Assembly: GCA_964403285.1 (NCBI GenBank)
Contig: CAYOFG010000005.1
Span: 9,995 to 73,994 of the forward strand
Direction: 5' to 3'
DNA length: 64,000 nucleotides
DNA from: an uncultured Clostridia bacterium
GTDB lineage: Bacteria; UBA6262; WVXT01
In this document: piece by piece, positions 19,028 through 39,769 of the stretch
How positions within the stretch are numbered: position 1 is the stretch's first letter
Layout: the number at the start of each line of letters is the position of its first letter
Program-made: the position numbers and the translations under genes
Notes under the pieces: generated by a model
Database searches by the model: none
What the model was told of the DNA's origin: nothing
Seen by the model: only the letters and a program-made list of their open reading frames with translations

Positions 19028-19272
19028 AAAATAAAAGACTTGACAAATTCGCATTTTTGTAGCATTATTTAAAGAGGGTAAATAGGGATATAAGTGTGTG
19101 CTGGGGTGAATTTTTTTTGTCTGCATTTTGAAGTGTTGATTTCAAAGTTACAGTATTACTAAAATTGACGAAGACGTATCGGAGGAAAAGAACCCAATCC
19201 TTAGCCATGCAGGAGATATCGACCCCAGGCCCAGAATACAGGAGATTCGAACCTAGGCTTTAGTCAAGAAAG

Positions 19273-20391: not shown

Positions 20392-20463
20392 ACTTAAATT
20401 CTGACCAAAAATATTTCTACATGCTACCGAAGGATTAAGGAGATTTCTAAAAAGGGGGGAGAA

Positions 20464-20646
20464 ATGGCAAAATTAAAGTGCAATAAATGTGGTACAATAC
20501 AGGACATACCCATTCATTGCGGGCAACCGATGATAGTTACGGAAATTAATGAGAGAACAATGCTCGCCTGTCGCATGGGCGCTGCCTGTGGCGTCACAAA
20601 AGAACTCCCGAAACATTGTGGTCAGCCTATGGTCGTAGTTGAGTAA
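20464..20646 (+). CDS. small Cys-rich protein with internal duplication (CxxCG...HCGQPM x2)
   Basis: 60 aa. KCNKCGTIQDIPIHCGQPMIV and CRMGAACGVTKELPKHCGQPMVV are two half-repeats. A strong terminator follows the gene. Confidence 0.45.
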   Translation: MAKLKCNKCGTIQDIPIHCGQPMIVTEINERTMLACRMGAACGVTKELPKHCGQPMVVVE

Positions 20647-20690
20647 GGCTAAATTTGCACCAGTAAGTTCCATACTGGCGTAAATTTCGG

Positions 20691-20726
20691 AAAAGCCCTC
20701 GTATTTGATACGAGGGCTTTTTTCTT
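20691..20726 (+). terminator. rho-independent terminator
   Basis: AAAGCCCTCGTAT-ttga-TACGAGGGCTTT followed by TTTTCTTTT. Confidence 0.75.
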
Positions 20727-20923
20727 TTGGGGTTAGTGAATTTTTATTTTCCTTGCTTTTTGCAAGAAGTGTAGATACAATATTTTCACAATTTCGCATG
20801 ATTCCAAAGGTACCGCATATAGTGCTACAATTTCAAATATTTCTTTTTGGGGCGGGAATAGCAGGTGAAATCCCTGTCCTAAACCTTCCAGAATATGGTC
20901 CATAAACCAGTAATTCCAATATT

Positions 20924-21892
20924 CTAAAATTTAACTTGTAGTTGAGTCATGAACAAATCGTTTCGTATACTCGGGGTTTCCATTTTTTGTTCGTAATTAT
21001 TTCTGAAGAGAACATTTTTATCAATGAAATAGTTCACTCCCCAGGTCCACCTGCTATTTTCATTATTTGATACATTTATATCTGGATCCAGAGAATCGTA
21101 TCTTAGTAATATGACTACAGATGGGATTAAGGTATATCCTGCAGTGACATAATATCCTTCCTGCTTTGTTGTTTCATCAATACCTGTAATGTATTCTGCT
21201 TTACACATAAATTTTTCAAATTCATATTTCATTTCGAAACCCGTTCGGTTCTTTGTAATACTGTTGGCACGAACGGAGCCATCATAAATTGAAGCCCCGA
21301 CACTAAGGCCGACTATGGGTAGGAATAATATTCTGCCTACGACTGTTTTTTGAGAATTTTCCTCTGCCTGATTCGAACCACTCCCGTTAAGAATTGCAAC
21401 AAAAACATTTGATTTTATGGATTTCAAAGAAAAACTTCTGGAGAGTTCAATACCGATATCTCTTGTGGGCTTTACAGAGTTATTTACAATATCCGATTTA
21501 TCTATAAATTCTAAATCAGCGTCTGGGGTACACTGTTCAAGTGAAAACTTGTATTTAAACTGTCCAACACGTAATATAAAATATTTGATTGATTTGACGT
21601 CAAAATAAGTATCATAAATTAACTTATTATTAATAGTATCAGTATTACTACCTTCAAGTGAGAAACAATATGAAATATTTTTTGATATATTCCCAATAAT
21701 CCCAAACCTCGATTGAGCAATACCAAAGCCGTCTTTTGCTCCTTCCGTAGTATCTGCAGTATATCTGACCCTGGCAAAACCGGCAAAACTAATTTTAGGA
21801 AAATCGGAATCTGCACTTGTTAATACCTGCATTGAAAATGCGGTCTTTACTGAAAAGAATAATACAATGCAAAGCAAGAAGTATTTTTTCAT
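20924..21892 (-). CDS. outer-membrane beta-barrel porin (phosphate-selective porin O/P-like, putative)
   Basis: Signal peptide MKKYFLLCIVLFFSVKTAFS, alternating amphipathic strands, and a C-terminal ...QLQVKF ending in an aromatic residue. Confidence 0.5.
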   Translation of the reverse strand: MKKYFLLCIVLFFSVKTAFSMQVLTSADSDFPKISFAGFARVRYTADTTEGAKDGFGIAQSRFGIIGNISKNISYCFSLEGSNTDTINNKLIYDTYFDVKSIKYFILRVGQFKYKFSLEQCTPDADLEFIDKSDIVNNSVKPTRDIGIELSRSFSLKSIKSNVFVAILNGSGSNQAEENSQKTVVGRILFLPIVGLSVGASIYDGSVRANSITKNRTGFEMKYEFEKFMCKAEYITGIDETTKQEGYYVTAGYTLIPSVVILLRYDSLDPDINVSNNENSRWTWGVNYFIDKNVLFRNNYEQKMETPSIRNDLFMTQLQVKF

Positions 21893-21921
21893 ATTATCTC
21901 CTTTTGAATTTATTTTTTGGC

Positions 21922-22743
21922 TTATTTAAATACATCAGGAAAAAACAAGGGCTCACCAAATTTCTCAACCCCATAATTTTTGATAATGTTTTGTCCCTCA
22001 GTGCTTCTAAGAAATTCAGCAAAATTTTTTGCTAAATCATATTTTACCCAGGGAAATTTGGATGGGGAAACCACAATTACAGAATAAGGGTTGTAAAGTT
22101 CAGGGTCATCATTAACAAGTAAATCAAGTGTATCAATCTCTTTTTTGTGTGACAACCACGTAGCCCTATCGCATAATGAATATGCAACTTTTTCATTTGC
22201 AATTCGCAATGTAACTTCCATACCAGAGCCACTTTCAATATACCAAGTGGAGGAAGGCTTCATACTTAGCTTTTCCCATAAATAAAGTTCCTTTTTATGT
22301 GTACCTGAATCATCACCTCGTGAAATAAATATGGATTTCGTTTCATATATTCTTTTTAATGCTTCTAAAGATTTAAGTCCTTTTATTCCTGCCGGGTCAT
22401 TTTTAGGGCCGATAATAAAAAAATCATTATGCATTATATCAAGCCTTTTTACCCCATAACCCTCAGCTACAAATTGCTCCTCGGATTTTCTGTCATGAAC
22501 AAGAATTACATCTGCATTACCATCTTTGGCAAGGCGCATTGCCTGTCCTGTTCCCACGGCAATTATTTTCACTTTACAATTGTATTTCTTTTCAAAGGGT
22601 GGTATCAAGACATCAAATAATCCTGAATCTAATGTTGAGGTAGTTGAAGCAAGTATCAGGCTCTTTTGGGCACTCACTTCAGAACTAAATCCAACAACCA
22701 ATAAAACAATTCCAAGAAAAAGGGGACAGGCTACTTTTTTCAT
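21922..22743 (-). CDS. periplasmic substrate-binding protein, TupA/WtpA-like (tungstate/molybdate-type PBP)
   Basis: Signal peptide, then ASTTSTLDSGLFD and RGDDSGTH motifs resembling TupA-family oxyanion-binding proteins. No permease or ATPase is adjacent. Confidence 0.45.
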   Translation of the reverse strand: MKKVACPLFLGIVLLVVGFSSEVSAQKSLILASTTSTLDSGLFDVLIPPFEKKYNCKVKIIAVGTGQAMRLAKDGNADVILVHDRKSEEQFVAEGYGVKRLDIMHNDFFIIGPKNDPAGIKGLKSLEALKRIYETKSIFISRGDDSGTHKKELYLWEKLSMKPSSTWYIESGSGMEVTLRIANEKVAYSLCDRATWLSHKKEIDTLDLLVNDDPELYNPYSVIVVSPSKFPWVKYDLAKNFAEFLRSTEGQNIIKNYGVEKFGEPLFFPDVFK

Positions 22744-23134
22744 TATTCACCTCAAAAATAAAAAATCCAGCATTCCGCACTTGCAAAATACTGGACTTCG
22801 TTTCTCCTTCTCAAGCACGGAAAGCGCACCGATTTCTCAATGCACTCTATCGGCCATCAACCATATCTTTTGGACTTAGGCAAAGTGGCTCGGAGAATAT
22901 TTTTATAGCATAGTATAAAAATTATACTTTTTTGTCAAGTAAAAAAGAGATAGATGTTATCCAAAGGCTTTACCCACCCAGATTCTCGTTCTGGGAATCT
23001 TAACTTACCGGCAACCTCTGTTCGCTTCTGGTCATTTAGAAGTGAAAGCTTGACGAATTCTTATTTTCCTTGATTTTTATAGGAGGTTTAGATATAATAC
23101 TTTTGGTATTCTGGATAGTTCTAAGGTTGTGGAT

Positions 23135-23480
23135 GGCTCCTGTCGGCGGCGTACCACAATAGAACATACGCAACATACTTAACAACGATAATTTTCATTG
23201 TTCAAGCTAAAATTCCAAGGCTCAACAAGAATCCAAACGCATATTCAGGCATTACAAGACAGCCGGGCTATTGCTATAATATGCTTAAGAGAAGGAGGCA
23301 GTTACTAAAGAGAGGGTATAGATTTGACCGAAAAACGAGGGAGTGGGTAAAGAAATAACATAATAGCAGGTAATAGTAATAAGGATTCTTTGAAACTGCC
23401 TTACAGATTAGGGCGGTTTTTTATTGCCCTCTGTGGCAGATTTTGCTATAGTAGATCACACCGAAAGACAGGAAAGATTT
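23135..23480 (+). repeat. about 350-bp direct repeat, copy 1 (3' gene fragment plus terminator)
   Basis: Matches 27403-27748 at roughly 80% identity. It includes an in-frame remnant ...[30 protein letters not shown] corresponding to the C-terminus of ORF 27276-27626. No intact ORF lies upstream of the remnant. Confidence 0.7.
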
Positions 23481-23682
23481 GGCAGGTAAATTAGAGTTTA
23501 GAGTATAAATAGACAAATAAAAACGGACAAAGCGATTGATATGAAAAAAGGAAATACTCAAGAAAAGGTGGAAGAATAGCAATAGGAGTATTTAATCGGT
23601 GGTAGTCCACAGGCTCTGCATTAAGACTTTGTGTTGATCGATGGCTGGGCTATAGGATGACTATGGAGAGGAGATTCAATCT

Positions 23683-26232
23683 GTGAAGGAACATCAACTG
23701 CAAAATTTAGATTTTGACTTTGTCAACTGTACTCAAGAAACACTTTTTGAGAAGATGGGAACTTCCCAGAAAGGCCTTACCGATGAAGAAGCCAAAAAGC
23801 GTCTTTCAGAATATGGCTTTAATGAGCCAGCTAAAAAGAAAAAAAGGACAATCCTTTTCCAAATCCTTTCAAAATTCCTTAGTCCTCTGGTTATAGTTCT
23901 TTTAGTCATCGGAGTATTTTCCTTATTTTTTGGGGAAAAGGTAAGCGCGATTCTGGTTATGTTGATGGCGCTTATCAGCGTCCTATTGTCTTTTGTGCAG
24001 GAATACCGCGCGGGCAGGGAAGCCGAGAAACTCAGCGAAATGGTCCGCTCCACAGCCACGGTTTACCGCAATGGCAAAGCCAGAGAGATAAAAATTAAGG
24101 AGATTGTCCCCGGAGACATAGTGGATTTGTTTGCCGGAGATATGATACCTGCGGACCTACGCATAATCTTCTGTAAGGATCTATTTGTTAACCAGGCGTC
24201 ATTAACGGGAGAGTCATTTCCTGTGGAAAAGAGTTCGAACCTCATAGAATCAAAGAGTAGTTCTCCAGCAGCTTTAACCAACATTGCTTTTATGGGCTCA
24301 AGTGTGGTAAGCGGAACAGGCTTAGGCGTGGTTATAAAAAGCGGACTTGCTACTCAATTCGGTGAGCTTTCTCGAAAACTTGCCACTATACCGATTGAGA
24401 CTGGTTTTGATAGAGGCGTACGCAGTTTTACCTGGCTTATGATTCGTTCTATGCTGGTTTTGGTTGCGGTTATCTTTGCCATAAACGCCCTATCAAAAGG
24501 CAATCCCATTCAGGCGTTTCTTTTTTCGCTGGCAGTTGCCGTAGGGCTTACGCCCGAGATGCTTCCCATGTTAGTGGCTATAAATCTTTCCAAGGGCGCG
24601 CTTGCGATGTCAAAGAAAGAAGTTATTGTAAAACGCCTAAATTCTATACAGAATTTCGGTGCAATGGATATTTTATGCACCGATAAAACAGGCACTCTTA
24701 CTTTGGATAAGATTATTTTGGAAAAACACTGCGATGTGGTACGAAATGACGACGAGGATGTGTTAAGGCTTGCCTATATTAACAGTTTTTACCAGACAGG
24801 ACTTAAGAATATTTTGGATAGGGCTATTTTAAGACATGAAAAACTGCTGGTTAAGGAGCATAAAAAGGTGGATGAAATACCTTTTGATTTCTCCAGAAAA
24901 ATAATGTCTGTGATAATTGAAATGAATGGAAAACACAAGCTCATTGCTAAAGGTGCACCAGAGGAAATTTTTAAGAGATGTACAAAATATGAATTAGATG
25001 GCGAAATATTGGATATGGAACAACTAATCCTGACAGACCTAAAAGAAGAACATGACCGATTAAGCATGGAAGGCTTTAGAGTCCTTGCTCTTGCCTATAA
25101 AGATATAGAAGACAAAAAAGAAAAATATACAAAAGAGGATGAAGAAAATTTGGTTCTTAAGGGCTATATTGCATTCTTAGACCCACCAAAACCCACAGCC
25201 AGAAAAACTATTGAAGTGCTAAAGAATTTGGGGATAGAATTTAAGGTCTTAACTGGTGATAATGAATTGGTGACAAAAAAGATATGCAGCGAAGTCAGTA
25301 TCGACGTCAAAGAATTAGTTACTGGTGAACAAGTTGAAAAACTGGATGATAAACAACTTCAGGAATTGGTAAAGACCGCTTCTGTTTTTGCCAGGCTTTT
25401 GCCTTTGCAGAAAGAAAGGATAATCCGCGCTCTTCATAAAAATAAACATATCGTAGGTTATTTGGGAGACGGCATCAATGACGCTCCTGCTTTGAAAGCC
25501 GCAGACGTCGGTATTTCAGTCAATAATGCGGTAGATATCGCCAAAGAGTCTGCAGATATAATTCTTTTAAAGAAAAGTCTTATGGTGCTTGCCGACGGGG
25601 TTACCGAAGGAAGAAAGACTTTCGGAAACATCCTTAAATATATCAAAATGGGTTCAAGCTCAAATTTCGGCAATATGTTTAGTATGACCGGAGCAAGCCT
25701 CTTTTTACCATTCCTGCCAATGCTACCCATACAGATACTATTGAACAATTTTCTCTATGATTTATCGCAGGTATCTATTCCTTCGGATGAAGTAGATAAA
25801 GAATACCTTTTAAAATCGCGGCCTTGGAATGTAAGATATATCAAAAAATTTATGCTTTTTATCGGCCCTATCAGCTCAATTTTTGACTTTGTGACCTTTG
25901 GAGTATTGCTATTTATTTTTCATGCCTCAGTAGCACTTTTTCGTACGGCTTGGTTCCTGGAATCCCTTTGCACACAGACATTGGTTATACATATCATCCG
26001 CACCGGCAAACTCCCCTTTCTTGAAAGTAAGCCCAGCCAGTTTCTGATGTTTACCTCTATCTATATAGTTACGATAGGACTGTTTATTCCGTTTACCCCT
26101 TTGGGAAAATATTTTGGTTTTGTCCAACCGCCGCCCGCATATTTTGTGGCGCTTGTTCTCATTGTGGCAGTTTATTTGTTAATGGTGCAGTTTGCAAAAA
26201 GATGGTTTATAAAAAAATACGGCTATGAATGA
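23683..26232 (+). CDS. mgtA: P-type cation-transporting ATPase, MgtA-like (P3B-type, Mg2+ import)
   Basis: 849 aa. Contains TGESFPVEK, DKTGTLT and GDGINDAPALKAADVGISV, ten predicted TM segments, and a cytoplasmic N-terminal extension typical of MgtA-type pumps. Confidence 0.7.
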   Translation: MKEHQLQNLDFDFVNCTQETLFEKMGTSQKGLTDEEAKKRLSEYGFNEPAKKKKRTILFQILSKFLSPLVIVLLVIGVFSLFFGEKVSAILVMLMALISVLLSFVQEYRAGREAEKLSEMVRSTATVYRNGKAREIKIKEIVPGDIVDLFAGDMIPADLRIIFCKDLFVNQASLTGESFPVEKSSNLIESKSSSPAALTNIAFMGSSVVSGTGLGVVIKSGLATQFGELSRKLATIPIETGFDRGVRSFTWLMIRSMLVLVAVIFAINALSKGNPIQAFLFSLAVAVGLTPEMLPMLVAINLSKGALAMSKKEVIVKRLNSIQNFGAMDILCTDKTGTLTLDKIILEKHCDVVRNDDEDVLRLAYINSFYQTGLKNILDRAILRHEKLLVKEHKKVDEIPFDFSRKIMSVIIEMNGKHKLIAKGAPEEIFKRCTKYELDGEILDMEQLILTDLKEEHDRLSMEGFRVLALAYKDIEDKKEKYTKEDEENLVLKGYIAFLDPPKPTARKTIEVLKNLGIEFKVLTGDNELVTKKICSEVSIDVKELVTGEQVEKLDDKQLQELVKTASVFARLLPLQKERIIRALHKNKHIVGYLGDGINDAPALKAADVGISVNNAVDIAKESADIILLKKSLMVLADGVTEGRKTFGNILKYIKMGSSSNFGNMFSMTGASLFLPFLPMLPIQILLNNFLYDLSQVSIPSDEVDKEYLLKSRPWNVRYIKKFMLFIGPISSIFDFVTFGVLLFIFHASVALFRTAWFLESLCTQTLVIHIIRTGKLPFLESKPSQFLMFTSIYIVTIGLFIPFTPLGKYFGFVQPPPAYFVALVLIVAVYLLMVQFAKRWFIKKYGYE

Positions 26233-26351
26233 AAATAGAGAATTTATTTCGCTTGATTTTTGCAAAAATTCAGAATATAATATATTCGTTACTGTAACGA
26301 AAAAGGGAAAATATGAGCTTGTTTTCGTTATGATAACTAAAAGGACAATAA

Positions 26352-26723
26352 ATGGGAGAATTTAAAAAGCATTTAGAAATTGCAAAAGAGAAATTGAAGG
26401 CAGTAGCAGCTGCGTACAAAAGTAAGCAGCACACGGTAGTAGGGGACCTCGCTACTAAGGTAGTAGAGCAATTGGTAGAAGCGGATGCTGGAAGGTTCAA
26501 TGAACATTTTGGTACTCACAGTGAAAGGCACGAATATTCCAATAAGACCTTTCCTGCTGAAATTAATAAGGCCATGAGAAAGGTATGGTTTGCGTATGGA
26601 GACTTGGGCTATGATGGAGTTGATGGAAAAAGAGCAAAATCTGTTATTATTAATTTGAATAAAATAATAGAATATTTTGCACAGAGGTTTGGTGAGAAAA
26701 TTGAACGCAAAATTAATGTATAA
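26352..26723 (+). CDS. small helical protein, possible partner of the downstream nucleotidyltransferase (HI0074/HEPN-like?)
   Basis: 123 aa, predicted all-helical. It overlaps the downstream NTase gene. No clean Rx4-6H HEPN motif is present. Confidence 0.3.
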   Translation: MGEFKKHLEIAKEKLKAVAAAYKSKQHTVVGDLATKVVEQLVEADAGRFNEHFGTHSERHEYSNKTFPAEINKAMRKVWFAYGDLGYDGVDGKRAKSVIINLNKIIEYFAQRFGEKIERKINV

Positions 26724-27285
26724 GAATATAGTGAAGCAACTGTCCGTAATAAGCGATGTAAAAGCAACAATAGTATACGGCAGCTTTGCAAGGGGTGACT
26801 ATGGACCCAAATCGGATATAGACCTATTTATAATAACCACTAAACCAGAAACCACGCAACAAATACAGGATAGGGTTATTGAACTGGAATCAAAAATAGG
26901 CAGGGGTATTCAGCCGACAATAAGGACAGAGAAAGAGCTAAAAAAGACAGACACAGGTCTGCTTCAGAATGTGTTTCAGGAAGGCAAAATCGTTTATCTA
27001 AGCGAGCCATTGGATATCTCTGTAAACTCCCTTCTCAAACAGAGACCCTATGTAATATACACATTTCAGTTGAATAATTTGAGTCAAAAAGATAAAGCAA
27101 GGTTTAATAGAGAATTATATGAAAGAACACACGAGAAATATGCATATAGAGGATTCCTTCAAGAAATCGGAGGAGAGAAGCTATCCAGTGGATGTGTGTT
27201 GATACCTTATAATAGAAAGAAAAGGATAGAAAAATTTTTTAAGAAATTTAAAGTCAAATATAGAAAATTGAAAATATGGAGATAA
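26677..27285 (+). CDS. nucleotidyltransferase-fold protein (MNT-like)
   Basis: YGSFARGDYGPKSDIDLFII matches the GSx(9-13)DxD polymerase-beta NTase motif. The true start is probably the internal MYKNIV. Confidence 0.6.
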   Translation: MHRGLVRKLNAKLMYKNIVKQLSVISDVKATIVYGSFARGDYGPKSDIDLFIITTKPETTQQIQDRVIELESKIGRGIQPTIRTEKELKKTDTGLLQNVFQEGKIVYLSEPLDISVNSLLKQRPYVIYTFQLNNLSQKDKARFNRELYERTHEKYAYRGFLQEIGGEKLSSGCVLIPYNRKKRIEKFFKKFKVKYRKLKIWR

Positions 27286-27626
27286 TTAAATATTCTAAGA
27301 GGGTATTCTCTGGTAAGGACTTGCAAAAACTCAGCAAATATGATAAAAATAATCTGGAACTAGATATTCACATACCTGGGCAAAATGATTCCCATGGGTG
27401 TGCATGTTATCTGGCGGCGTACCACCATACAACATACACAAACCACATAGGAACAGTAATTTTCATTGTCCAGAGCATGATTTCAAGGCTAAATAAGAAT
27501 CCGAATGCGTGCTCAGGCCGTTCAAAACAGCCAGGCTATCGCTATGGGATGGTCAAAAGAAGAAGGCAGTTACTAAGGAAAGGTTATAGATTTGACCGAA
27601 AAACGAGGGAATGGGTAAAGAGATGA
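27276..27626 (+). CDS. hypothetical protein (its 3' end is duplicated at 23.1-23.35 kb)
   Basis: 116 aa with a basic C-terminus. Its start overlaps the stop of the upstream NTase gene. Confidence 0.4.
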   Translation: MEIIKYSKRVFSGKDLQKLSKYDKNNLELDIHIPGQNDSHGCACYLAAYHHTTYTNHIGTVIFIVQSMISRLNKNPNACSGRSKQPGYRYGMVKRRRQLLRKGYRFDRKTREWVKR

Positions 27627-27661
27627 TGTAATATCAGGTAATATTAATAAGGATTCTTTGA

Positions 27662-27691
27662 AACCGTCTTACCAAGGTGAGGCGGTTTTTT
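27662..27691 (+). terminator. rho-independent terminator
   Basis: AACCGTCTTACC-aa-GGTGAGGCGGTT (using G-U pairs) followed by TTTTTT. Confidence 0.6.
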
Positions 27692-27759
27692 ATTGCCTTT
27701 TCAAAATGTTTTTGCTATATTGACAGTAAGAAAAGGGACTGGAAAGGTTTATCGACCAT

Positions 27760-27832
27760 GGGGCAGTAGTTCGGTTGGGAGAACGCATCCCTCTCACGGA
27801 TGAGGTCAGTGGTTCGAATTCCCTCTGCTCCA
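27760..27832 (+). tRNA. tRNA-Glu (anticodon CUC)
   Basis: Acceptor stem GGGGCAG/CTGCTCC, D-stem GTTC/GAAC, anticodon stem CATCC/GGATG with loop CUCUCAC, T-loop TTCGAAT. There is one mismatch in the T-stem and no encoded CCA. Confidence 0.6.
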
Positions 27833-27941
27833 GAGCCGATGAACGTACGCGACGATTTATTAGAATTTTAGATTTGTCAAGGGGAGCTTTAAGTTAGAAC
27901 TGGTTTTTTTGTTAATGTTGTTGTTTAGTATTTCTTAAGCG

Positions 27942-28022
27942 ATGGATATTCTTCTTATAGCTATAATGCTTGGGTTGATTGCAGTTTCTTTTGCATTCAT
28001 TGCTTTATGTAATAAAGTCTAG
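27942..28022 (+). CDS. 26-aa hydrophobic peptide upstream of kdpF (MDILLIAIMLGLIAVSFAFIALCNKV)
   Basis: Single-TM micropeptide ORF 10 nt upstream of kdpF. This could equally be chance. Confidence 0.25.
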   Translation: MDILLIAIMLGLIAVSFAFIALCNKV

Positions 28023-28032
28023 GAGATAATCT

Positions 28033-28125
28033 ATGCATGTGATTTATTGGATAGGCGGTATTATTTCATTGCTTTTGTTTATTTATCTTCTCATAGCTCT
28101 TCTCAAACCGGAGATTTTTAAATGA
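28033..28125 (+). CDS. kdpF: K+-transporting ATPase subunit F
   Basis: [30 protein letters not shown]. The PExF-type C-terminus and single TM are typical of KdpF. Its stop overlaps the kdpA ATG (ATGA). Confidence 0.6.
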   Translation: MHVIYWIGGIISLLLFIYLLIALLKPEIFK

Positions 28126-29867
28126 ATTGGAATAATCTTGCCCAGAGCCTCATCTATTTGACAGTGCTGCTTTTGTTGGTTAAACCGCTTGGGATCTATA
28201 TGGCGCGAATCTATGAAGGCAAGCCTACCGGTATAAACGTTTGGTTTTGGTGGTTAGAAAAATTTATTTACCGATTGACAGGCGTACATCCTGAGCAGGG
28301 AATGAATTGGAAAACCTATGCAATAGCGATGATGCTATTTAATGTATCAGGAATAGTGGTTGTCTATATCCTTCAGCGTGTTCAACCGTACCTACCTTTA
28401 AATCCTATGTCTATGCCGGCAGTTAATCCGGATCTGGCATTCAATACGGCAGTTAGCTTTACTACCAATACGAATTGGCAGAGTTACGGCGGAGAAACAA
28501 TTTTGAGTTATCTTACCCAGATGCTGGGATTGACCGTTCAAAACTTTGTTTCTGCGGCAACGGGGATGGCTATATTAGTGGCTGTAATCCGAGGGTTTGT
28601 CCAAAAGCAGGTTGAAACAATCGGTAATTTCTGGGTGGATTTAGTTAGGTCTACGCTCTACATACTAATGCCGCTTGCAATAATACTGTCTTTGGTTTTA
28701 GTATCGCAAGGGGTAGTTCAGACCTTTAAACCGAGCGTAAAAGTCGCTTTGCTTGAAGCTGCTAGAGATGCAAATGGAGAAACTGTTTCAGAACAGGTTA
28801 TTGCTTTGGGTCCGGCTGCTTCTCAAATAGCCATCAAGCAGCTAGGTACTAACGGAGGCGGTTTCTTTAATGTCAACTCCTCGCATCCATTCGAAAACCC
28901 GACACCTTTATCAAATTTTCTGGAGATGTTAGCCATACTTTTGATAGCTGCGGCATTGTGCTATACCTTTGGCCATATGGTTAGAGACAGGCGTCAAGGT
29001 TGGGCGATACTGGCGGCTATGTTGATAATCTTTATTCCATGTCTTTGGGGATGCATTCAAGTTGAACAAAAAGGCAATCCTTTGTTTGGTCGATTAGGCG
29101 TTGATCAAAATGCAAGTTCTCTGCAGCCCGGCGGTAATATGGAAGGTAAAGAAGCGCGTTTTGGCATCGTGAATTCAGCTATATGGGCAACAGCCACAAC
29201 CGCAGCTTCCAACGGTTCGGTAAACTCAATGCATGATTCCTATATGCCTCTTGGAGGGATGGTCCCGATGTGGCTTATGCAATTGGGAGAGGTAATTTTT
29301 GGCGGAGTTGGCTCAGGCCTTTATGGGATGATTGCGTTTATCATTATTGCGGTATTTATCTCAGGGCTTATGGTCGGTCGTACGCCCGAATATTTAGGTA
29401 AAAAAATTGAAGGCTATGAAATGAAAATGGCTTCTCTGATGATTTTGATTCCGCCTATTCTTGTTTTATTAGGTACGGCAGTTTCAGTTGTTTTACCGCA
29501 GGCAAAAGCAGCGATATTTAATCCAGGCCCCCACGGATTCAGCGAAGTGCTGTACGCATTTTCTTCTGCAGGAAACAATAATGGAAGCGCATTTGCAGGA
29601 TTATCCACGAATAACCTTTTCTATAACATTGCTCAAGGGTTAGCTATGTTTTTTGCGCGTTACTGGCTCGCAATACCCGCGCTTGCCATTGCAGGTTCCC
29701 TTTCTAAGAAAAAGATTGTTCCTGTAAGTCAGGGCACATTGCCTACGCATACCCCGCTTTTTATAATATTTTTGGTTATGGTTATTTTGATTGTCGGAGC
29801 ACTGACGTTTTTCCCGGCATTAGCTTTAGGCCCAATTGTTGAGCATTTAATTTTATCTGGAGTTTAA
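28122..29867 (+). CDS. kdpA: K+-transporting ATPase subunit A
   Basis: 581 aa. N-terminus [33 protein letters not shown] and the four selectivity-filter-like GG regions are characteristic of KdpA. Confidence 0.9.
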
Positions 29868-29868
29868 T

Positions 29869-31947
29869 ATGAGTAAATCTCACAAGCCCAAGTCATTGTT
29901 TGATCCGTCCATTGCCGGACCGGCTGTCATTGAAGCGATAAAGAAATTAGACCCTAGGCATCAGATTAAGAATCCGGTGATGTTTGTGGTTTTGGTGGGA
30001 AGCGTATTGACTACGGGTCTATATATTCAGGCGTTGATGAGAAAAGGAGAAGCTCCGGCTGGCTTTATTTTAGCTATTAACTTATGGCTGTGGTTTACGC
30101 TTATTTTCGCTAATTTTTCGGAAAGCCTTGCCGAAGGTCGTGGAAAAGCGCAGGCCGCAAGTTTAAGGAAAGCTAGGAAAGATACTCTTGCCAAAAAGCT
30201 TTCGAAGGCTGAGTATAGTTCTGATTACGAAAAGGTAACAGCTTCGATGCTTGGAAAAGGAGATATTGTTCTTGTTGAAGCTGGCGATACAATTCCTATG
30301 GATGGCGATGTTATAGAGGGCGTAGCCTCTGTTGATGAGAGCGCAATTACCGGAGAGAGTGCACCGGTCATACGTGAAAGCGGAGGAGACCGCAGCGCTG
30401 TTACCGGAGGCACAAGGGTTCTTTCCGATTGGCTTGTTGTGCGAATAAGCTCTAATCCAGGAGAAACGTTTTTAGATCATATGATAGCCATGGTTGAAGG
30501 GGCAAAAAGGCAAAAAACGCCTAATGAGATAGCTCTTAGTATCTTGCTTGCTGTTTTTACTTTAATATTTCTTTTAGCAACGGCAACTCTTCTTCCGTTT
30601 TCAATTTATAGTATAAATGTCGCAGGGCATGGCGAGCCTGTCTCGGTAACGGTTTTAGTAGCCCTGCTTGTTTGTCTAATTCCCACTACCATAGGAGGAT
30701 TATTGCCGGCTATAGGCATTGCCGGTATGGATAGAATGATTCAGGCTAATGTTATCGCTACCTCGGGTCGGGCTGTAGAAGCATCAGGAGATGTGGATGT
30801 CCTTCTCTTAGACAAAACAGGAACTATTACGCTTGGCAACAGGCAAGCTGTGGCTTTTATTCCTACTCAAGGTAAGAGCATTGGGTCTTTGGTAGATGCA
30901 GCGCAAATAGCTTCTTTGGCTGACGAGACTCCGGAGGGAAGAAGTATTGTTGTCTTGGCTAAGGAAAAATATGGAATCAGGGAACGCCATATTCAAGAAC
31001 TTAGCGCAAAGTTCATCCCCTTTACAGCACAGACGCGAATGAGCGGAGTGGATTTAGGAGACGGCAGGCAGATCAGAAAGGGAGCGGTCGATTCCGTGGA
31101 AAGCTATGTCAAAGACCTCGGCGGGTCATTCCCAGAAGATTTAAAGACAGCCATTACCTTTATTTCTAAAAGCGGGGGAACTCCACTGGTTGTAGCAGAG
31201 CAAAAAAATGTGCTCGGCGTCATCCATTTAAAAGATATTGTCAAGGGCGGCATAAAGGAACGTTTTGCTGAACTGCGGCGCATGGGAATTAAAACCGTAA
31301 TGATTACCGGAGATAATCCTTTGACTGCAGCAGCGATTGCTGCAGAAGCAGGTATGGATGATTTTTTGGCTCAGGCTACTCCTGAATCTAAGCTTAAATA
31401 TATCCGCAAAATGCAAGAGGGAGGCAGACTTGTTGCGATGACCGGCGATGGAACTAACGATGCGCCGGCTCTTGCGCAGGCAGATGTTGCCGTAGCCATG
31501 AATACGGGAACGCAGGCGGCAAAAGAAGCAGGGAATATGGTTGACCTTGATTCTAATCCCACAAAGCTTATTGAAATTGTTGAAATCGGAAAGCAGCTGC
31601 TAATGACTCGAGGTTCTTTAACCACCTTCAGTATCGCCAATGATGTATCAAAATATTTTGCGATTATTCCGGCAGCATTCGTAGGAACGTATCCGGCGCT
31701 TTCGGCGCTTAATATTATGCATCTTGCCACACCAGCAAGCGCTGTTTTGTCAGCAGTTATTTTTAATGCACTTATTATTATACTTCTGATCCCGTTGGCG
31801 TTACGCGGCATTCGATATAAACCAATGCCTGCAAGCCGCCTTTTACGGGATAACTTGTTTATCTATGGAATAGGCGGAATAATAGCTCCGTTTTTAGGCA
31901 TCAAGTTGATTGATATGATTTTGGTTGCGTTACATCTTGTTCGATAA
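29869..31947 (+). CDS. kdpB: K+-transporting ATPase subunit B (P-type ATPase)
   Basis: 692 aa. Contains [28 protein letters not shown] and TGDNPLTA. Confidence 0.9.
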
Positions 31948-31955
31948 GGAGAAAC

Positions 31956-32564
31956 ATGTTTCGGCAACAAATTAGGCCAACGATTTTATTGTTTATAGTT
32001 TTATCAATCATCTCCGGGATTATTTATCCGCTATTTGTGACTGGCATTGCACAGATGTTTTTCCATAATAAAGCTAACGGCAGCTTAATTTATAGAAATG
32101 GAAAACCAGTAGGGTCATTACTTATTGGTCAACCATTTGATGACCCCAGATACTTTTGGGGCCGTCTTTCAGCAACATCTCCCGTTGCTTTCAATGCAGC
32201 AGCTTCATCGGGGTCTAACTTAGGGCCTTCTAACCCCGCATTAATCAGCGCGGTAGAAGCGCGCATCAAAGAATTAAAAGCAGCCGATCCTGACAATAAA
32301 AATCCAATTCCAGTAGATTTAGTCACTTCTTCAGCAAGCGGTCTAGACCCGCATATTAGTTTAGCGGCGGTGTATTATCAAGTTTCTCGGGTTGCGCGTG
32401 TGCGCGGATTACCGCAAGATTTCGTGAGAAAAATTGTAAACCAATATTCTCGCGGCCGTCTCTTGGGGGTAATTGGAGAGCCGGTTGTAAACGTACTTGA
32501 AGTGAATTTAGCATTGGATGCCCGCCTCACCGGCAGGCAGACGCAAAATGCAAAATTGAGGTGA
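31956..32564 (+). CDS. kdpC: K+-transporting ATPase subunit C
   Basis: 202 aa with a single N-terminal TM and the conserved GLDPHIS-type region. It follows kdpB. Confidence 0.85.
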   Translation: MFRQQIRPTILLFIVLSIISGIIYPLFVTGIAQMFFHNKANGSLIYRNGKPVGSLLIGQPFDDPRYFWGRLSATSPVAFNAAASSGSNLGPSNPALISAVEARIKELKAADPDNKNPIPVDLVTSSASGLDPHISLAAVYYQVSRVARVRGLPQDFVRKIVNQYSRGRLLGVIGEPVVNVLEVNLALDARLTGRQTQNAKLR

Positions 32565-32567
32565 AAT

Positions 32568-34745
32568 ATGGAAAGGCCTGATCCAGATGAATTGTTAGCA
32601 AATATCAAGCGCGAGGAATCGCATAGGGGAAAACTTAAAATTTTCTTTGGCGCGGCCGCGGGAGTAGGTAAAACTTACTCAATGCTTGAGGCCGCAAGGC
32701 TCCAGAAGAAAGAAGGCGTTGACGTTGTTGCCGGATGGGTTGAGACGCATAAACGTGTTGAAACGGAAGTTCTCCTTGAAGGCTTGGAAATCCTTCCGGC
32801 AAAGATTATCCAGTATAAGAATGTTGGGTTGCGAGAATTTGATATTGATGCTGCATTAGTGAGAAAACCAGCTCTTATCTTAGTCGATGAGCTGGCCCAT
32901 ACCAATGCTCCCGGTTCGCGCCACCCAAAACGATGGCAGGATGTTGAGGAACTTCTTGATAAAGGAATAGATGTTTATACTACCCTTAATGTTCAGCACT
33001 GCGAAAGTGCTACTGATGTTGTGGCTCAGATTACAGGCATAACCGTCCGTGAGACTATACCCGACACCATTGTTGAGAAGGCTGATGAAATAGAACTTGT
33101 GGATTTGCCCACCGAGAACCTGCTAAAACGCCTCAAAGAAGGAAAAGTTTATCTTGGAGAAATGGCAGAGCGAGCGGCTCAACATTTCTTTCAACCGGGT
33201 AATTTAATCGCATTGCGACAGTTGGCGCTGCGTTATACGGCGCACAACGTGGATGAAAAACTAATGTCGTATAAACAGGCTCATGCTGTTTCAAAAGTAT
33301 GGGGCGCGCGGGATAGATTTCTGGTATGTATATCTGCTAGCCCAAATGCCATTCGCTTAATCAGGGCAGGTAAACGCATTGCGGCAGATTTAGGAGTAAA
33401 CTGGACTGTTGCATATGTAGAGACTGGCACGCAATTAAATGAGAAGGACAAGGCTAGGATATCCGAAATGATGCGCCTTGCGGAAAAACTAGGGGCACAG
33501 GTAGCTACACTGAGCGGCCAAGATGTGGCAGAGACGTTAATTTCGTATGCGCGTTCAAAGAATGTCAACAAAATAATTGTGGGTAAGCCGGCAAAACCAA
33601 AATGGAAGGAGCTTGTTTTTGGTTCTATTATCGATAAGTTAGCCCGTAAATGCCAAGAAATAGATTTGTATCTATTAAGCGGAGAGGCTCAAAGTGAACC
33701 CATTGAGGTTGCTCCTGTGGCCATGGTTCCTTTTTCTTGGAAAAACTTCTTTAAAGTTTTAAGCATAGTCATTCTTTGTACCTTAATAGACTGGGCAATG
33801 TTTCGTAATTTAGCCCTTGTTAATTTAATAATGGTTTATTTACTGGGAGTAACCTGGGTTGCCTTCAAATACGGCCGCCGGCTGTCAATGATAGCGTCCT
33901 TCTTGAGTGTTGTATTTTTTGATTTCTTTTTCGTACCTCCGTATTTGACATTTGCGGTAGCAGACGTTCAATATATTCTTACTTTCGCAGTTATGCTCAT
34001 TGTGGGTTTTGCTATATCCCATTTGACGGGTCAGCTTCGCCGCCAAACTATCATGATGCGTTTCCGGGATGACAGAACGCAGGTTCTTTATGCGCTAAGC
34101 CGTGACTTGTCAAAAAGTTCCTATCCCGATGAACTTTTTAAGATTACGTTAAAACATATTCAAGAATTTTTTAAATGTCGGGCCGTTATCCTTACTCCTG
34201 ATGCAAAGAAAAAACTTATGCCGCGTTTTGGCGAAGCAGAAGAATTAAGTCTTTTCCCCAACGAAATTGCTGTCGCGCAGTGGGCATATGAAAATAAGAA
34301 AGTCGCTGGAAAAGATACCGATACCTTGCCGGGTGCAAAGGGAATTTATTTTCCTTTTGTGGGCGCAGAAAAGACAGTGGGAGTAATTGGAGTTTTTCCT
34401 CATGAGGATAAACAGTTTGTTGATCCCGAACAGTTTCATATTTTAGAAATGTTTGTTAGCCAAGCTGCACTGGCTGTCGAAGGAGCACAGCTTGCAGCGG
34501 CAGCTCTTGACGCAGAAGCAAAGATTGAAAGTGAACGTCTCAAGAATTTACTTCTAACTACTTTTTCTTCCGGTTTACCTGAGCCTTTAACGTCTATCTC
34601 TCAAACCGCCTCGGAATTATTAAAACCGGAAAATATTAAAGACGATTCAAAACGTGCTGAATTGATAGAGAAAATGCGCCAAGAGACAGAGCGTTTGAAT
34701 TCCCTTATTACTGAGTTGCCAAAGATACTTGAATCAGAAGAGTAG
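32568..34745 (+). CDS. kdpD: KdpD-like sensor lacking the kinase catalytic domain and the phospho-acceptor His
   Basis: KdpD N-terminal domain (GAAAGVGKTYSM P-loop), USP-like region, 4-TM block, GAF, then a degenerate DHp (ERLKNLLLTTFSSGLPEPLTSIS, where the canonical form is ..SHDLRTPLT..). The protein ends after about 70 more residues with no HATPase. No kdpE is present. Confidence 0.75.
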   Translation: MERPDPDELLANIKREESHRGKLKIFFGAAAGVGKTYSMLEAARLQKKEGVDVVAGWVETHKRVETEVLLEGLEILPAKIIQYKNVGLREFDIDAALVRKPALILVDELAHTNAPGSRHPKRWQDVEELLDKGIDVYTTLNVQHCESATDVVAQITGITVRETIPDTIVEKADEIELVDLPTENLLKRLKEGKVYLGEMAERAAQHFFQPGNLIALRQLALRYTAHNVDEKLMSYKQAHAVSKVWGARDRFLVCISASPNAIRLIRAGKRIAADLGVNWTVAYVETGTQLNEKDKARISEMMRLAEKLGAQVATLSGQDVAETLISYARSKNVNKIIVGKPAKPKWKELVFGSIIDKLARKCQEIDLYLLSGEAQSEPIEVAPVAMVPFSWKNFFKVLSIVILCTLIDWAMFRNLALVNLIMVYLLGVTWVAFKYGRRLSMIASFLSVVFFDFFFVPPYLTFAVADVQYILTFAVMLIVGFAISHLTGQLRRQTIMMRFRDDRTQVLYALSRDLSKSSYPDELFKITLKHIQEFFKCRAVILTPDAKKKLMPRFGEAEELSLFPNEIAVAQWAYENKKVAGKDTDTLPGAKGIYFPFVGAEKTVGVIGVFPHEDKQFVDPEQFHILEMFVSQAALAVEGAQLAAAALDAEAKIESERLKNLLLTTFSSGLPEPLTSISQTASELLKPENIKDDSKRAELIEKMRQETERLNSLITELPKILESEE

Positions 34746-34948
34746 GACCTTCGAGCTTGGATCTTATATAACCAATAATTCTTTTGTTTCCTTTGACTAT
34801 TATCTGTGGTAAAATCATTTCCTGAAATCCTTCTGAATTTTTGTAGTTTTGTTGTGAAAAAGGACAAATTTTTGGCGCTACTAAAGATAAGGCCCTGTAT
34901 CGAAACCTGTCGATATCTGGCGCACCAGACAAAATTTTTACTAAACTT

Positions 34949-35533
34949 ATGGCAATTATGATATTTATTGAAAGAATAAGAGAATGTAAAAAATGTGACA
35001 TTAGATTTCATAAGCCTCTTGTGTTTGGAGATATTGAAAAGAACAAGTTCGTATTTTTGAGTGAGGAGCCCACGAAAGATGCAAGAGACAGGGATTTTTT
35101 TGAATATTATCTTGGCTCGCCAAATGGGAGATTTCATACTGAATGGATGCCCAAGATGGGAATTGACATTGCTTGGCTCAAAAATAATGCTTATATTACG
35201 CATGTATATAAATGTTGTTCGGAAATGAAAAAGTATCAACGTAATAAAATGTGCGCCCACTGCTTGGATTGGTTAGAAAAGGAAAAAGAATATTTTAAGA
35301 ATGGAAAAACTATCATTACTTTTGGAAGCTATGCTCTTGCAAATCTGCGTTCTACGCATCCTTATGCACAGCGTATAACAGAAATAATAAAAGAAAAAAA
35401 GCAGTTTTCAATTTGGGAAAGTGATGTGATTCCACTCCTTCATCCAGCCAGAACAAACAATCGTTATATAAATAAGTATAGAGAAGAAATCGATTACATC
35501 TTACATAAAATCAGAAGTCTTATCCATAATTAA
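34949..35533 (+). CDS. hypothetical protein, weakly uracil-DNA-glycosylase-superfamily-like
   Basis: 194 aa in an AT-rich segment. N-terminal CKKCD, ...VFLSEEPTKD, and LLHPARTNN are reminiscent of family-4/5 UDG motifs (GEAPG / HPSPLN) but divergent. Confidence 0.25.
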   Translation: MAIMIFIERIRECKKCDIRFHKPLVFGDIEKNKFVFLSEEPTKDARDRDFFEYYLGSPNGRFHTEWMPKMGIDIAWLKNNAYITHVYKCCSEMKKYQRNKMCAHCLDWLEKEKEYFKNGKTIITFGSYALANLRSTHPYAQRITEIIKEKKQFSIWESDVIPLLHPARTNNRYINKYREEIDYILHKIRSLIHN

Positions 35534-35726
35534 GTATGTGAGATTGATTTTGAAATCCCTTAATTTTTAAATTTGTTAATTTCCTTTGGTGCAAATTGAA
35601 ATTAAAAAAAGAGAAAGGAAGGTCTAACATCAGGATTCCTATTTTGCTTGATTTTTGCAAAAGCTTTAGATATAATAGATTTGGCATTCAGCATAAGGCA
35701 TAATAAGAAAATGCACGGCAGAATTT

Positions 35727-35804
35727 CGGCGGCGTAGCTCAGTTGGTCAGAGCAGGGGAATCATAATCCCTTTGTCGTAGGTTCGAATCCTACCGCCGCT
35801 ACCA
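35727..35804 (+). tRNA. tRNA with CAU anticodon (elongator Met or tRNA-Ile2/lysidine)
   Basis: GGCGGCGTAGCTCAGTTGGTCAGAGCAGGGGAATCATAATCCCTTTGTCGTAGGTTCGAATCCTACCGCCGCTACCA is a full cloverleaf with CAU in the anticodon loop and a paired 1:72 position, so it is not an initiator. Coordinates are +/-1 because of a local numbering ambiguity. Confidence 0.85.
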
Positions 35805-35818
35805 GAAATATTATAGTC

Positions 35819-37255
35819 TTGTCCAAAGAGTCCGCAATGGCGGGCTATTTTTATCGAAAAATGGTCTTCCCCAAGGTAAAAAAAATAATAGAAAAATATA
35901 GTATGTTTTCTCCTGGAGATAAAATCCTGGTGGGAGTTTCCGGAGGACCGGATTCAGTTTGCCTGTTGCATATCCTGGATAGATTCCGAAAAGAGATGGC
36001 TTTATCCTTGCACATCGCACACATCAACCATGGAATAAGAAAGAGGGAATCTAAAAGAGAAGAAGAATTTGTGAGTCACCTGGCTGGTAGGATGGGTCTA
36101 CCAATTACGGTGAAATCAATAAATGTTCCCTCTTATGCTAGAAAGAAAAAGCTAACGGTTGAGGAAGCAGCAAGGGATATGCGTTACAGGGTTTTGGAGC
36201 GATTAGCCGGGAAACTGAATGCTAAAAAGATTGCTCTGGGACATACTGCTTCCGATCAGGTGGAGACAGTGCTAATGCACCTTTTGCGTGGCAGCGGTCC
36301 GCAAGGGTTATCTGGAATTCCTCCTTTGAGAAAATTGGGTAGAGCGGAAATCGTCCGTCCTCTAATAGAAATAAGTAGGGAAGAAATTTTGGGCTATTTA
36401 AAAGAGAATAATCTGAAATTCTGCCTGGATTCGTCAAACAGAAAAACCGAATATTTTCGTAACAAGATAAGGTTAAAGCTTCTGCCTCTTTTGCGAAAGA
36501 ACTATAATAGGAACATTGAGGGAGCGCTCCTCCGTTTGTCAGAAATTTTGAAAGAAGAGAATGCCTATTGGGAGAGAGTGGTGGAGAGAGTTTTGAACGA
36601 GGTAGTCTCCTGGAAATCAGGGAAAATTTTGATTGATTTCAGGAGGTTTTTAAGATATAATGTAGTTGTTCAGAGAAGAGTTTTATACAGGCTTTTTGCG
36701 GGAATTGTAAGTCTATACCAGATAGAAGCAATAAGAAATTTAGCAGGGAAGAGTTCTCAGGGGAAAAGGATTTATCTGGTTAACAGGTTAAGTGTCAGGA
36801 AAGAGGGCGATTTTCTCATATTCTCATCTTCTCCTGAGCGAAAGTTAAAAAAATTCAATTATCCCATCAGAGTTCCTGGCAAAAACGAGATTGACGGACT
36901 GAACTTAACACTCAATACCAGAATAGTAGATTTTCGTCCTGTTTCTGATGGAAGTGCCAATATAGTCTATTTTGATATTGATAAGATAAACTCCCGGAAG
37001 TTAATAATAAGGAATAGACGGGAGGGAGACAGGTTTAAGCCTTTTGGGTTGAGAGGTACAAAGAAGCTTAGTGACTTCTTTATTGATAGAAAAATCCCCA
37101 GACGTTTACGGGACAGGGTTCCTCTTCTGGTAGATGGAAACGATATTCTCTGGGTTGTGGGGATTCGCCGGGCCGATAAAGCAAGGATTACTGAAGATAC
37201 CAGAAAGATTTTGGAAGTTCAGGTTTTACGTGAGAAAGAGTCTTTCAGTGATTAA
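35819..37255 (+). CDS. tilS: tRNA(Ile)-lysidine synthetase
   Basis: PP-loop SGGPDS at residues 41-46 and a TilS-like C-terminal domain. The ORF begins at a TTG; alternative ATG starts lie 18 and 42 nt downstream. Confidence 0.85.
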   Translation: MSKESAMAGYFYRKMVFPKVKKIIEKYSMFSPGDKILVGVSGGPDSVCLLHILDRFRKEMALSLHIAHINHGIRKRESKREEEFVSHLAGRMGLPITVKSINVPSYARKKKLTVEEAARDMRYRVLERLAGKLNAKKIALGHTASDQVETVLMHLLRGSGPQGLSGIPPLRKLGRAEIVRPLIEISREEILGYLKENNLKFCLDSSNRKTEYFRNKIRLKLLPLLRKNYNRNIEGALLRLSEILKEENAYWERVVERVLNEVVSWKSGKILIDFRRFLRYNVVVQRRVLYRLFAGIVSLYQIEAIRNLAGKSSQGKRIYLVNRLSVRKEGDFLIFSSSPERKLKKFNYPIRVPGKNEIDGLNLTLNTRIVDFRPVSDGSANIVYFDIDKINSRKLIIRNRREGDRFKPFGLRGTKKLSDFFIDRKIPRRLRDRVPLLVDGNDILWVVGIRRADKARITEDTRKILEVQVLREKESFSD

Positions 37256-37266
37256 AGAGGTGGAAT

Positions 37267-39677: not shown

Positions 39678-39769
39678 TATCGGGGTCGGGCACTCTTCAG
39701 AGTGCCGTTCTTCGTCACCCTTAAGGGTGACCGACCTATAACTACATTCCTCCCTTTCGGGAGGACTCC
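39678..39769 (-). repeat. compound palindromic repeat (REP-like), inverted copy of 62364-62507
   Basis: Hairpins GGGCACTCTTCAGAGTGCCC-like, GGTCACCCTTAAGGGTGACC and CCTCCCTTTCGGGAGG. The reverse complement recurs downstream of argS. Confidence 0.8.

Follow-up and report, generated by a model that had tools for sequence, protein, structure and literature searches.

A probable composite island with K+ and Mg2+ pump genes between a tRNA(CAU) gene and its native promoter

We analyzed a 64-kb stretch of contig CAYOFG010000005.1 (assembly GCA_964403285.1), hereafter the window, and in particular a 14.9-kb block within it that carries genes for a Mg2+ importer (mgtA) and a K+ importer (kdpFABC). We consider it likely that this block (20824-35727) is a composite island, assembled horizontally and inserted between a tRNA(CAU) gene and the native promoter and leader of that gene, in a clade whose core proteins are labelled Elusimicrobiota. 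The insertion probably took place in several steps. An original prediction, made from the letters of the window, had proposed one or two acquired cassettes carrying Mg2+ and K+ uptake systems. Horizontal acquisition of the pump cassettes is supported because the synteny is not shared with relatives, the arginine codon shift of kdp is significant, the modules occur elsewhere with other neighbours, and the labels of their homologues differ from those of the core. The island is, however, larger than proposed and is a mosaic of at least five modules: a porin/binding-protein pair, mgtA, a nucleotidyltransferase pair, kdp and a uracil-DNA glycosylase (UDG)-like gene. An accessory island that brings ATP-driven K+ and Mg2+ uptake to an uncultivated lineage is a well-supported and ordinary kind of transfer; its unusual parts are the promoter-side insertion site, a repeated small-gene cassette that mimics the promoter at module edges, and a tRNA-like gene with a variable anticodon.

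The block separates tRNA(CAU) from its promoter and is missing in three relatives

The following features define the boundaries:
20693-20823, forward strand: native terminator, promoter and leader of tRNA(CAU), orphaned and pointing into the 3' end of the porin gene; promoter repeat family D3
20824-35727, no strand assigned: composite insertion, 14.9 kb long, which three relatives lack at this locus
35633-35727, forward strand: promoter copy (family D3) with a divergent leader, now driving tRNA(CAU)
35728-35804, forward strand: tRNA(CAU), at which the block ends on the right; tilS follows directly in all four genomes

The three relatives, gauged by the identity of their TilS to that of the window, were L027 (89%), L028 (86%) and L032 (79%). 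In each of them the promoter directly adjoins tRNA(CAU)-tilS and the block is absent at the syntenic position, whereas in the window 14.9 kb separates the tRNA gene from its native promoter and leader. The downstream order tilS-ftsH-folE-folP is kept in all three. L028 is colinear with window 10511-18828 (from otsA to the second, 575-aa paralogue of a pair), with 20424-20803 (a small Cys-rich open reading frame [ORF], terminator and promoter; L028 9486-9864) and again with 35635-47271 (promoter, tRNA(CAU), tilS, ftsH, folE, folP onward). In L027, the closest available relative with core DNA 87.5% identical to the window, positions 9693-9820 are 80% identical to window 20693-20823 and abut tRNA(CAU) at the equivalent of window 35728, and L032 shows the order promoter-tRNA(CAU)-tilS. 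The identities of TilS and FtsH give the topology ((window, L027), L028), and because of this topology a single gain is more parsimonious than repeated identical losses. TilS homologues form about 75 in-clade clusters at 71-97% identity, after which the identity drops to 48%.

These comparisons agreed with the original prediction in that relatives lack the pump genes at this locus and that the block ends on the right at tRNA(CAU). Its left edge, placed at the repeat starting at 23135, has to be moved to 20824 according to the synteny with L027 and L028, so that the repeat and the supposed tRNA-Glu gene, taken as bounds of the block, are both internal to 20824-35727.

Two observations concern the host and the tRNA gene itself. 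The core proteins carry the labels Elusimicrobiota/Elusimicrobia or 'bacterium' (FolP and OtsA near-identical, TilS at 86%), and the species is absent from the collection of GTDB-representative genomes. The tilS gene starts at 35819 in the window, and tRNA(CAU) adjoins tilS also at L027 9823, L028 9887 and L032 1805; since the tRNA gene immediately precedes tilS in four genomes, its position suggests a lysidine-modified tRNA-Ile2, the substrate of TilS, rather than tRNA-Met.

Both pump modules occur elsewhere with other neighbours

The pump genes are as follows:
23683-26232, forward strand: mgtA, Mg2+-importing P-type ATPase (TIGR01524, 1040 bits vs a cut-off of 610.75, residues 7-847)
27942-28022, forward strand: conserved 26-aa hydrophobic ORF (MDILLIAIMLGLIAVSFAFIALCNKV), at which homology with the kdp operon of L021 starts
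28033-28125, forward strand: kdpF, 30 aa
28122-32564, forward strand: kdpA (28122-29867), kdpB (29869-31947) and kdpC (31956-32564); Pfam families called on identical Logan contigs
32568-34745, forward strand: KdpD-like non-kinase sensor, 725 aa, with KdpD-N, Usp, DUF4118 and GAF domains, a degenerate DHp domain without His and no catalytic domain

The kdp unit was present in four other genomes, with different neighbours each time and with the following DNA identities:
L025: 94.5%, window 27413-34866
L021: 90.9%, window 27943-34744
L023: 82%, window 28021-34740
L030: 78%, window 28042-34744 (in pieces)

The kdp DNA is thus nearer to that of L021 (90.9%) than the core DNA is to that of the closest relative (87.5%). 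In L026 the mgtA module, which spans promoter, cassette, leader and gene (23061-26232), has a 90.8% identical counterpart with different flanks. Two mobile modules can be described, the first composed of cassette, P2 promoter, leader and mgtA, the second of cassette, P2, a tRNA-Ala-like gene, a small ORF, kdpFABC and the KdpD-like gene. For MgtA, three protein clusters were found at 96% identity or more, and the next ones at 81% and below. Among those at or below 81% that carry an organism name, most are labelled Omnitrophica and a few Planctomycetes-type or plain 'bacterium'; the window MgtA is 78.7% identical to these matches, which are 78.5% identical among themselves. When the members of clusters at 90% or more were considered, the mates of FolP and OtsA carried the label Elusimicrobiota or 'bacterium', and those of KdpB the label Omnitrophota or Margulisiibacteriota.

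Outside the block, AGA and AGG (AGR) make up 66.5% of the arginine codons (549 AGR vs 277 CGN), less than the roughly 80% of the original estimate. The kdp operon uses 31 AGR vs 65 CGN (Fisher p=2e-10 vs the rest of the window), and the KdpD-like gene alone, with the strongest shift, 8 AGR vs 30 CGN (p=9e-8), so the shift towards CGN that had been predicted for these genes was confirmed. The remaining genes of the block are AGR-rich (43 AGR vs 12 CGN). In L021 and L023, kdp is surrounded by housekeeping genes (miaB-like, lapAB, dnaX, ybaB and others) with an AGR fraction of 0.23, which is not different from that of their own kdp (p=0.15 and 0.2, respectively); the neighbours of kdp reach 0.67 in the window and 0.68 in L025, and kdp stands out in both. 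The kdp module keeps the CGN-rich arginine usage of genomes such as L021 and L023, which look donor-like. Other measures did not set the pumps apart: the GC content at third codon positions (GC3) is normal for kdp and mgtA and low for the porin, binding-protein and UDG-like genes (z -2.9 to -3.8), and an all-codon likelihood score gives kdp and mgtA z values of -0.8 to -2.8, while the syntenic core genes otsA and DUF5752, both at -3.1, are at least as atypical. The per-gene check of codon usage and GC3 that had been proposed thus bore out the arginine codons of kdp only.

The same data might be read as an ancestral block that was deleted in the L027, L028 and L032 lineages, with the arginine shift of kdp due to gene-specific selection, for example on membrane proteins. 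Membrane or envelope genes outside the block do have a low AGR fraction (plsY 0.27, Rce1 0.45 and PorV-TPR 0.44), and the clade shows other gains and losses (18829-20423 and 45.1-56.0 kb). But, given ((window, L027), L028), deletion would have had to occur independently two or more times between identical end points, the strongest shift is found in the KdpD-like gene although about half of its product is cytoplasmic, kdp is 91% identical to an operon lying among CGN-rich genes in L021, which is above the 87.5% of core DNA, and the neighbours of the modules differ in every genome examined. We consider an ancestral block very unlikely. Import of both pumps is indicated by the identity distributions, the cluster labels and the codon pattern of kdp, and these sequence comparisons make a strong case for kdp and a moderate one for mgtA. 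They point to ion-homeostasis operons that move between candidate phyla.

The kdp operon encodes a conserved kinase-less KdpD

As in Escherichia coli-type KdpFABC-KdpD/KdpE systems, kdpF, kdpA, kdpB and kdpC follow each other in canonical order, and the KdpD-like protein shares with its E. coli counterpart the N-terminal sensor, Usp, four-helix membrane (DUF4118) and GAF domains, matching E. coli-type KdpD over model positions 6-718 of 895. A canonical KdpD has an H-box of the SHDLRTPL type. The window protein differs in that its DHp remnant reads SSGLPEPL, without the phospho-acceptor His, and no catalytic (HATPase_c) domain was found in it and no kdpE downstream of its gene. The original prediction, whose gene content was confirmed (mgtA, kdpF, kdpA, kdpB, kdpC, a KdpD-like gene without HATPase and one nucleotidyltransferase), had denoted this gene kdpD'. 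More than 100 protein clusters share a KdpD-like form of 724-732 aa, and for this reason the 725-aa protein is, by sequence, a conserved kinase-less sensor and not a truncation, which calls for a correction of annotations that would take it for a broken gene. It is also longer than the KdpD_non_kinase model NF038185 (about 370 aa), which it matches over residues 2-371 only.

A further difference from E. coli-type Kdp is the presence of the 26-aa hydrophobic ORF and of the tRNA-like gene before kdpF. ORFs of 26-27 hydrophobic residues upstream of kdpF were also seen in L021 (5385-5468), L023 (5323-5406) and L025 (2527-2607), and the product might serve the Kdp complex as a second small membrane subunit.

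The 350-bp direct repeat is a small-ORF cassette

The direct repeat noticed in the original prediction is real: 23135-23470 is about 80% identical to 27403-27748 (offset 4268, ungapped), and 11-12 nt separate the end of the second copy from the tRNA-like gene at 27760. Its parts are listed below:
23055-23124, forward strand: cassette 1 promoter (TTGATT-17-TATAAT) and leader, which are homologues of those of tRNA(CAU)
23125-23425, forward strand: small-ORF cassette copy 1, coding core at about 23185-23358 (about 57 aa), terminator hairpin at 23391-23420 followed by a U run
23424-23452, forward strand: P2 promoter (TTGCCC-17-TATAGT, upstream TG) before a 230-nt mgtA leader; kept in both window copies, L025_B and L026
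27393-27694, forward strand: small-ORF cassette copy 2, coding core 27453-27626, terminator hairpin 27659-27689
27693-27721, forward strand: P2 promoter copy (TTGCCT-17-TATATT, upstream TG)

The layout of the cassette is promoter, leader, small ORF and terminator, with P2 added in two pump-linked lineages; in copy 2 its own promoter is replaced by the end of the MNT-type nucleotidyltransferase gene. Four further copies were found, one in L026 (mgtA-linked; ORF at 460-624), two in L025 (one kdp-linked, one solitary; ORFs at 594-761 and 2050-2205) and one in L027 (upstream of a TetR operon; ORF at 1944-2114), together with a partial remnant in L032 (617-721). One forward frame is open in all six copies, apart from a single TAG in L025_B and a 9-nt indel in one copy, and the reverse-strand frames are all closed. 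Across the six copies, the ratio of nonsynonymous to synonymous differences (pN/pS) ranges over 0.22-0.45, with estimates of 0.27-0.29, between about 23190 and the stop at 23358, compared with about 1 (0.98) before this stretch; the coding signal needs all six, since the mismatch periodicity between the two window copies alone (16/17/22) gives none. No canonical start codon is conserved in the ORF, and an ATT in frame is invariant. When 1.84 billion representative proteins were searched with a profile, 23 clusters of small proteins with the cassette core were retrieved. The basic protein of about 57 aa has no family, PDB or fold match; for its C-terminal half, AlphaFold models a helix and then a beta-hairpin with confidence.

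Other identities of the repeat were considered. A known riboswitch, leader or small RNA was rejected: no Rfam family matched the repeat, whether the gathering threshold or a limit of E=10 was applied, the single-sequence and two-sequence folds are unremarkable save for the terminator hairpin (minimum free energy z-scores of 0.08 and -2.5), and the coding signal is present in six copies. An ATG-initiated ORF in frame B and a +1 frameshift were rejected as well, there being no purifying selection in frame B. Exact 19-mer and 18-mer scans with the most conserved segment of the repeat through genome and metagenome contigs returned chance matches only.

tRNA genes are the usual targets of integrative elements. 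A classical integrase-mediated island or pair of islands, with the repeats as attachment (att) sites and the tRNA genes as targets, would be in line with the original prediction, which saw the block as bounded by direct repeats and tRNAs. Direct repeats and two tRNA-type genes are indeed found in the region or at its edge. Nevertheless, the repeats are only 80% identical, with about half of each under purifying selection as a small ORF; they exist in at least six copies in four genomes, some solitary, and in 23 clusters of the global protein library; they lie inside the island and not at its edges; the insertion is 5' of tRNA(CAU), with no 3' fragment of the tRNA in duplicate; the tRNA inside the island is a degraded paralogue moving with kdp; and no integrase was found among the ORFs of at least 80 aa in the Pfam scan of the 64-kb window. 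Such an integrase-mediated origin has, in our estimate, very little probability, and the repeats are two paralogues of a clade-specific promoter/small-ORF/terminator cassette, not att sites.

The cassettes resemble the insertion site

The first 110 nt or so of every cassette align with the promoter, the leader and the first 8 nt (GGCGGCGT) of tRNA(CAU); window 23051-23148, for instance, matches L028 9795-9893 at 75%. A closer match joins two loci from the same sample, L025 139-570 and L032 1381-1812, which are 95.4% identical up to exactly nucleotide 8 of the tRNA, where the cassette body starts. That L025 might simply be an orthologous tRNA(CAU) locus is doubtful, as the homology with L032 also stops on the left, at L025 139. 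In the window, copies of the promoter family flank the island (20738-20807 and 35633-35702), and further ones head internal modules (23055-23124 and 26245-26286).

These findings led us to a scheme that we infer from the repeats alone, in which modules would enter or shuffle by recombination within the roughly 110 nt that cassettes and tRNA(CAU) have in common, from the promoter through the leader to nucleotide 8 of the tRNA. Each insertion would displace the old promoter and supply the tRNA with a new one, and successive events would stack modules in tandem. That the cassettes are the ends of an integrase-less insertion or gene-capture system is a speculative proposal which we hold to be rather unlikely, as is, separately, the idea that the tRNA-Ala-like gene linked to kdp is expressed and charged. 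The basic protein of about 57 aa encoded beside the junction could be a DNA-binding accessory factor. If true, the mechanism would be a new way to build islands without a dedicated recombinase.

In its position next to a tRNA gene, its absence from relatives, its mosaic accessory cargo, the foreign codon usage or GC3 of part of the block and its tandem stacking, the island resembles known tRNA-associated islands and integrative elements, such as pathogenicity islands at tRNA loci, where islands accrete in tandem. It differs from them in that no integrase or recombinase was seen in the window, that the insertion lies between the promoter/leader and nucleotide 1 of the tRNA, and that the duplication comprises the promoter and leader, to which the cassettes add 8 nt of the tRNA, instead of a 3' tRNA fragment.

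Several observations weigh against a horizontally assembled island at this site. Neither an integrase or transposase domain in the ORFs of at least 80 aa covered by the Pfam scan of the 64-kb window nor a target-site duplication in the window was found, the promoter copies that flank the island are only about 67% identical, and the left junction lacks the fusion of GGCGGCGT and cassette that a simple single crossover predicts. Among the loci fetched there was no independent assembly of the left part (20.8-26.9 kb). With respect to origin, mgtA shows no significant arginine shift (16 AGR vs 15 CGN, p=0.12), contrary to what had been predicted for it, and the phylum labels are names given by submitters to proteins of metagenome-assembled genomes (MAGs). 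Finally, L030, which carries an Omnitrophica label, is GC3-rich and not CGN-biased. A general CGN bias of Omnitrophota was rejected on this ground, and the donor would therefore be a particular lineage and not the phylum as a whole.

One might also suspect an assembly artefact, in which a MAG contig had fused Omnitrophota-like pump DNA with host DNA at repeated promoter or cassette sequences. The metagenomic source, the repeats of 70-350 nt that border modules and the different phylum labels of pumps and core would all fit. On the other hand, three independent Logan assemblies (L002, L003 and L004) cover 26956-35871 at 99.9-100% identity and reproduce the whole order from the MNT gene through cassette, tRNA-like gene, kdp, UDG-like gene, promoter and tRNA(CAU) to the start of tilS; the junctions between cassette and pump recur in L025 and L026, which come from other samples; and cassettes lie beside host core genes in L027 and L032. 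We regard an artefact as highly improbable and retain the stepwise, composite island.

A tRNA-Ala-like gene with a drifting anticodon precedes kdp

The tRNA-like gene of the kdp module is the following:
27760-27832, forward strand: degenerate tRNA-Ala paralogue with anticodon CUC, called tRNA-Glu by ARAGORN (Infernal, 50.4 bits)

The original assignment to tRNA-Glu did not hold, as the gene has an Ala-type acceptor stem (G3:U70 and A73), matches a bona fide tRNA-Ala(CGC) from L023 at 88% identity, and has orthologues with CGC or UGC. The anticodon is CUC in the window, UGC in L002 (805-877) and CGC in L025 (2346-2418). L002 is 99.93% identical to the window over 8335 nt, and three of the six differences (27793, 27794 and 27820; two in the anticodon, one at position 61) fall inside the 73 nt of this gene, for which the binomial probability is about 1e-5. 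With positions labelled according to standard tRNA numbering, its lesions are A14G, a U51-C63 mismatch and G53-U61, and no CCA is encoded. Most likely, to judge by sequence, it is a decaying paralogue that travels with kdp.

Alanyl-tRNA synthetase (AlaRS) reads G3:U70 and ignores the anticodon (PMC12084884; bioRxiv 10.1101/2022.11.23.517754), and because of this a functional Glu-to-Ala mistranslator is conceivable. The gene may thus be a natural mistranslator of this kind or a regulatory tRNA-like leader. It shares with mistranslating tRNA-Ala anticodon variants the Ala-type acceptor stem (G3:U70 and A73) in combination with a non-Ala anticodon, CUC, and differs from them by its lesions, the lack of CCA and a covariance score 14 bits lower than the 64.7 bits of the tRNA-Ala(CGC) of L023. 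With its drifting anticodon it is a candidate for a natural mistranslating tRNA in bacteria.

Other cargo of the island

The remaining modules contain the following features:
20924-21892, reverse strand: Porin_O_P outer-membrane porin (PF07396, E=5e-22), GC3 0.28 (z=-3.1)
21922-22743, reverse strand: PBP_like_2 periplasmic binding protein (PF12849, E=1e-43), GC3 0.26 (z=-3.75)
22788-22907, reverse strand: molybdenum cofactor (Moco)/tungsten riboswitch (RF01055, 70.5 bits), upstream of the binding-protein/porin pair
26352-27285, forward strand: 123-aa ORF overlapping an MNT-type nucleotidyltransferase gene (26677-27285), both behind a promoter at 26253-26281
34949-35533, forward strand: AT-rich family-4 UDG-like ORF (PF03167, E=1.6e-10; TIGR00758 below cut-off), GC3 0.295

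Judging from family membership, the cargo would equip its host for ATP-driven import of K+ through Kdp, with its kinase-less KdpD-type sensor, and of Mg2+ through MgtA. It would also bring in a nucleotidyltransferase pair, a UDG-like gene, and an oxyanion binding protein and a porin that are controlled by a riboswitch. Overall the window has a GC content of about 42%, and nowhere is it richer in AT than in the binding-protein/porin pair under the Moco/tungsten riboswitch (GC3 0.26-0.28). The AT-rich UDG-like ORF was found as originally described. The nucleotidyltransferase pair was compared with type VII (MNT-HEPN) toxin-antitoxin pairs, in which a MntA-type enzyme is joined by a HEPN-domain protein. 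PF18765 and PF01909 both hit the nucleotidyltransferase, which reaches 37 bits with the MntA model, below the cut-off of 60; its 123-aa partner has no match in Pfam, NCBIfam or PDB and no similarity to the HEPN protein of L021. Megablast against plasmid and phage collections returned no match to the block, and a plasmid or phage origin was rejected on this basis.

MgtA pumps with a Mg2+-sensing leader, either an M-box or the enterobacterial mgtA leader with mgtL, share two traits with the window, namely a full-length TIGR01524 match above the cut-off and a long untranslated stretch before mgtA that includes a terminator and a small ORF. The window differs in that its mgtA leader matched neither the M-box nor any other Rfam family, even when E was relaxed to 10, and in that the upstream small ORF is a multi-copy cassette. 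Because this cassette also occurs away from pumps, the ORF is not a dedicated mgtA leader peptide.

Other variable segments and riboswitches of the window

A second segment missing from L028 (18829-20423) contains a gene for a PAS/HisKA_3 histidine kinase. A 43-nt repeat is found at 10272-10314 and, inverted and near one edge of this segment, at 18982-19024, as well as at L028 2135-2177. A segment of about 10.9 kb (45099-56028), which encodes a Big_5 protein, a PorV-TPR protein, two histidine kinases and proteins with a type IX secretion system tail, is missing in L032, in which plsY and an aldehyde dehydrogenase gene come right after the DAGK gene; L027 and L028 carry at least the Big_5 gene of this segment. 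Three riboswitches of the cyclic di-GMP-I type were located at 14982-15066 (forward strand), 16931-17025 (forward strand) and 55860-55945 (reverse strand). Two of them precede genes of paralogous 572-aa and 575-aa proteins without a Pfam domain, an arrangement that is kept in L028, and the third precedes the gene of a 490-aa protein with a type IX secretion sorting tail.

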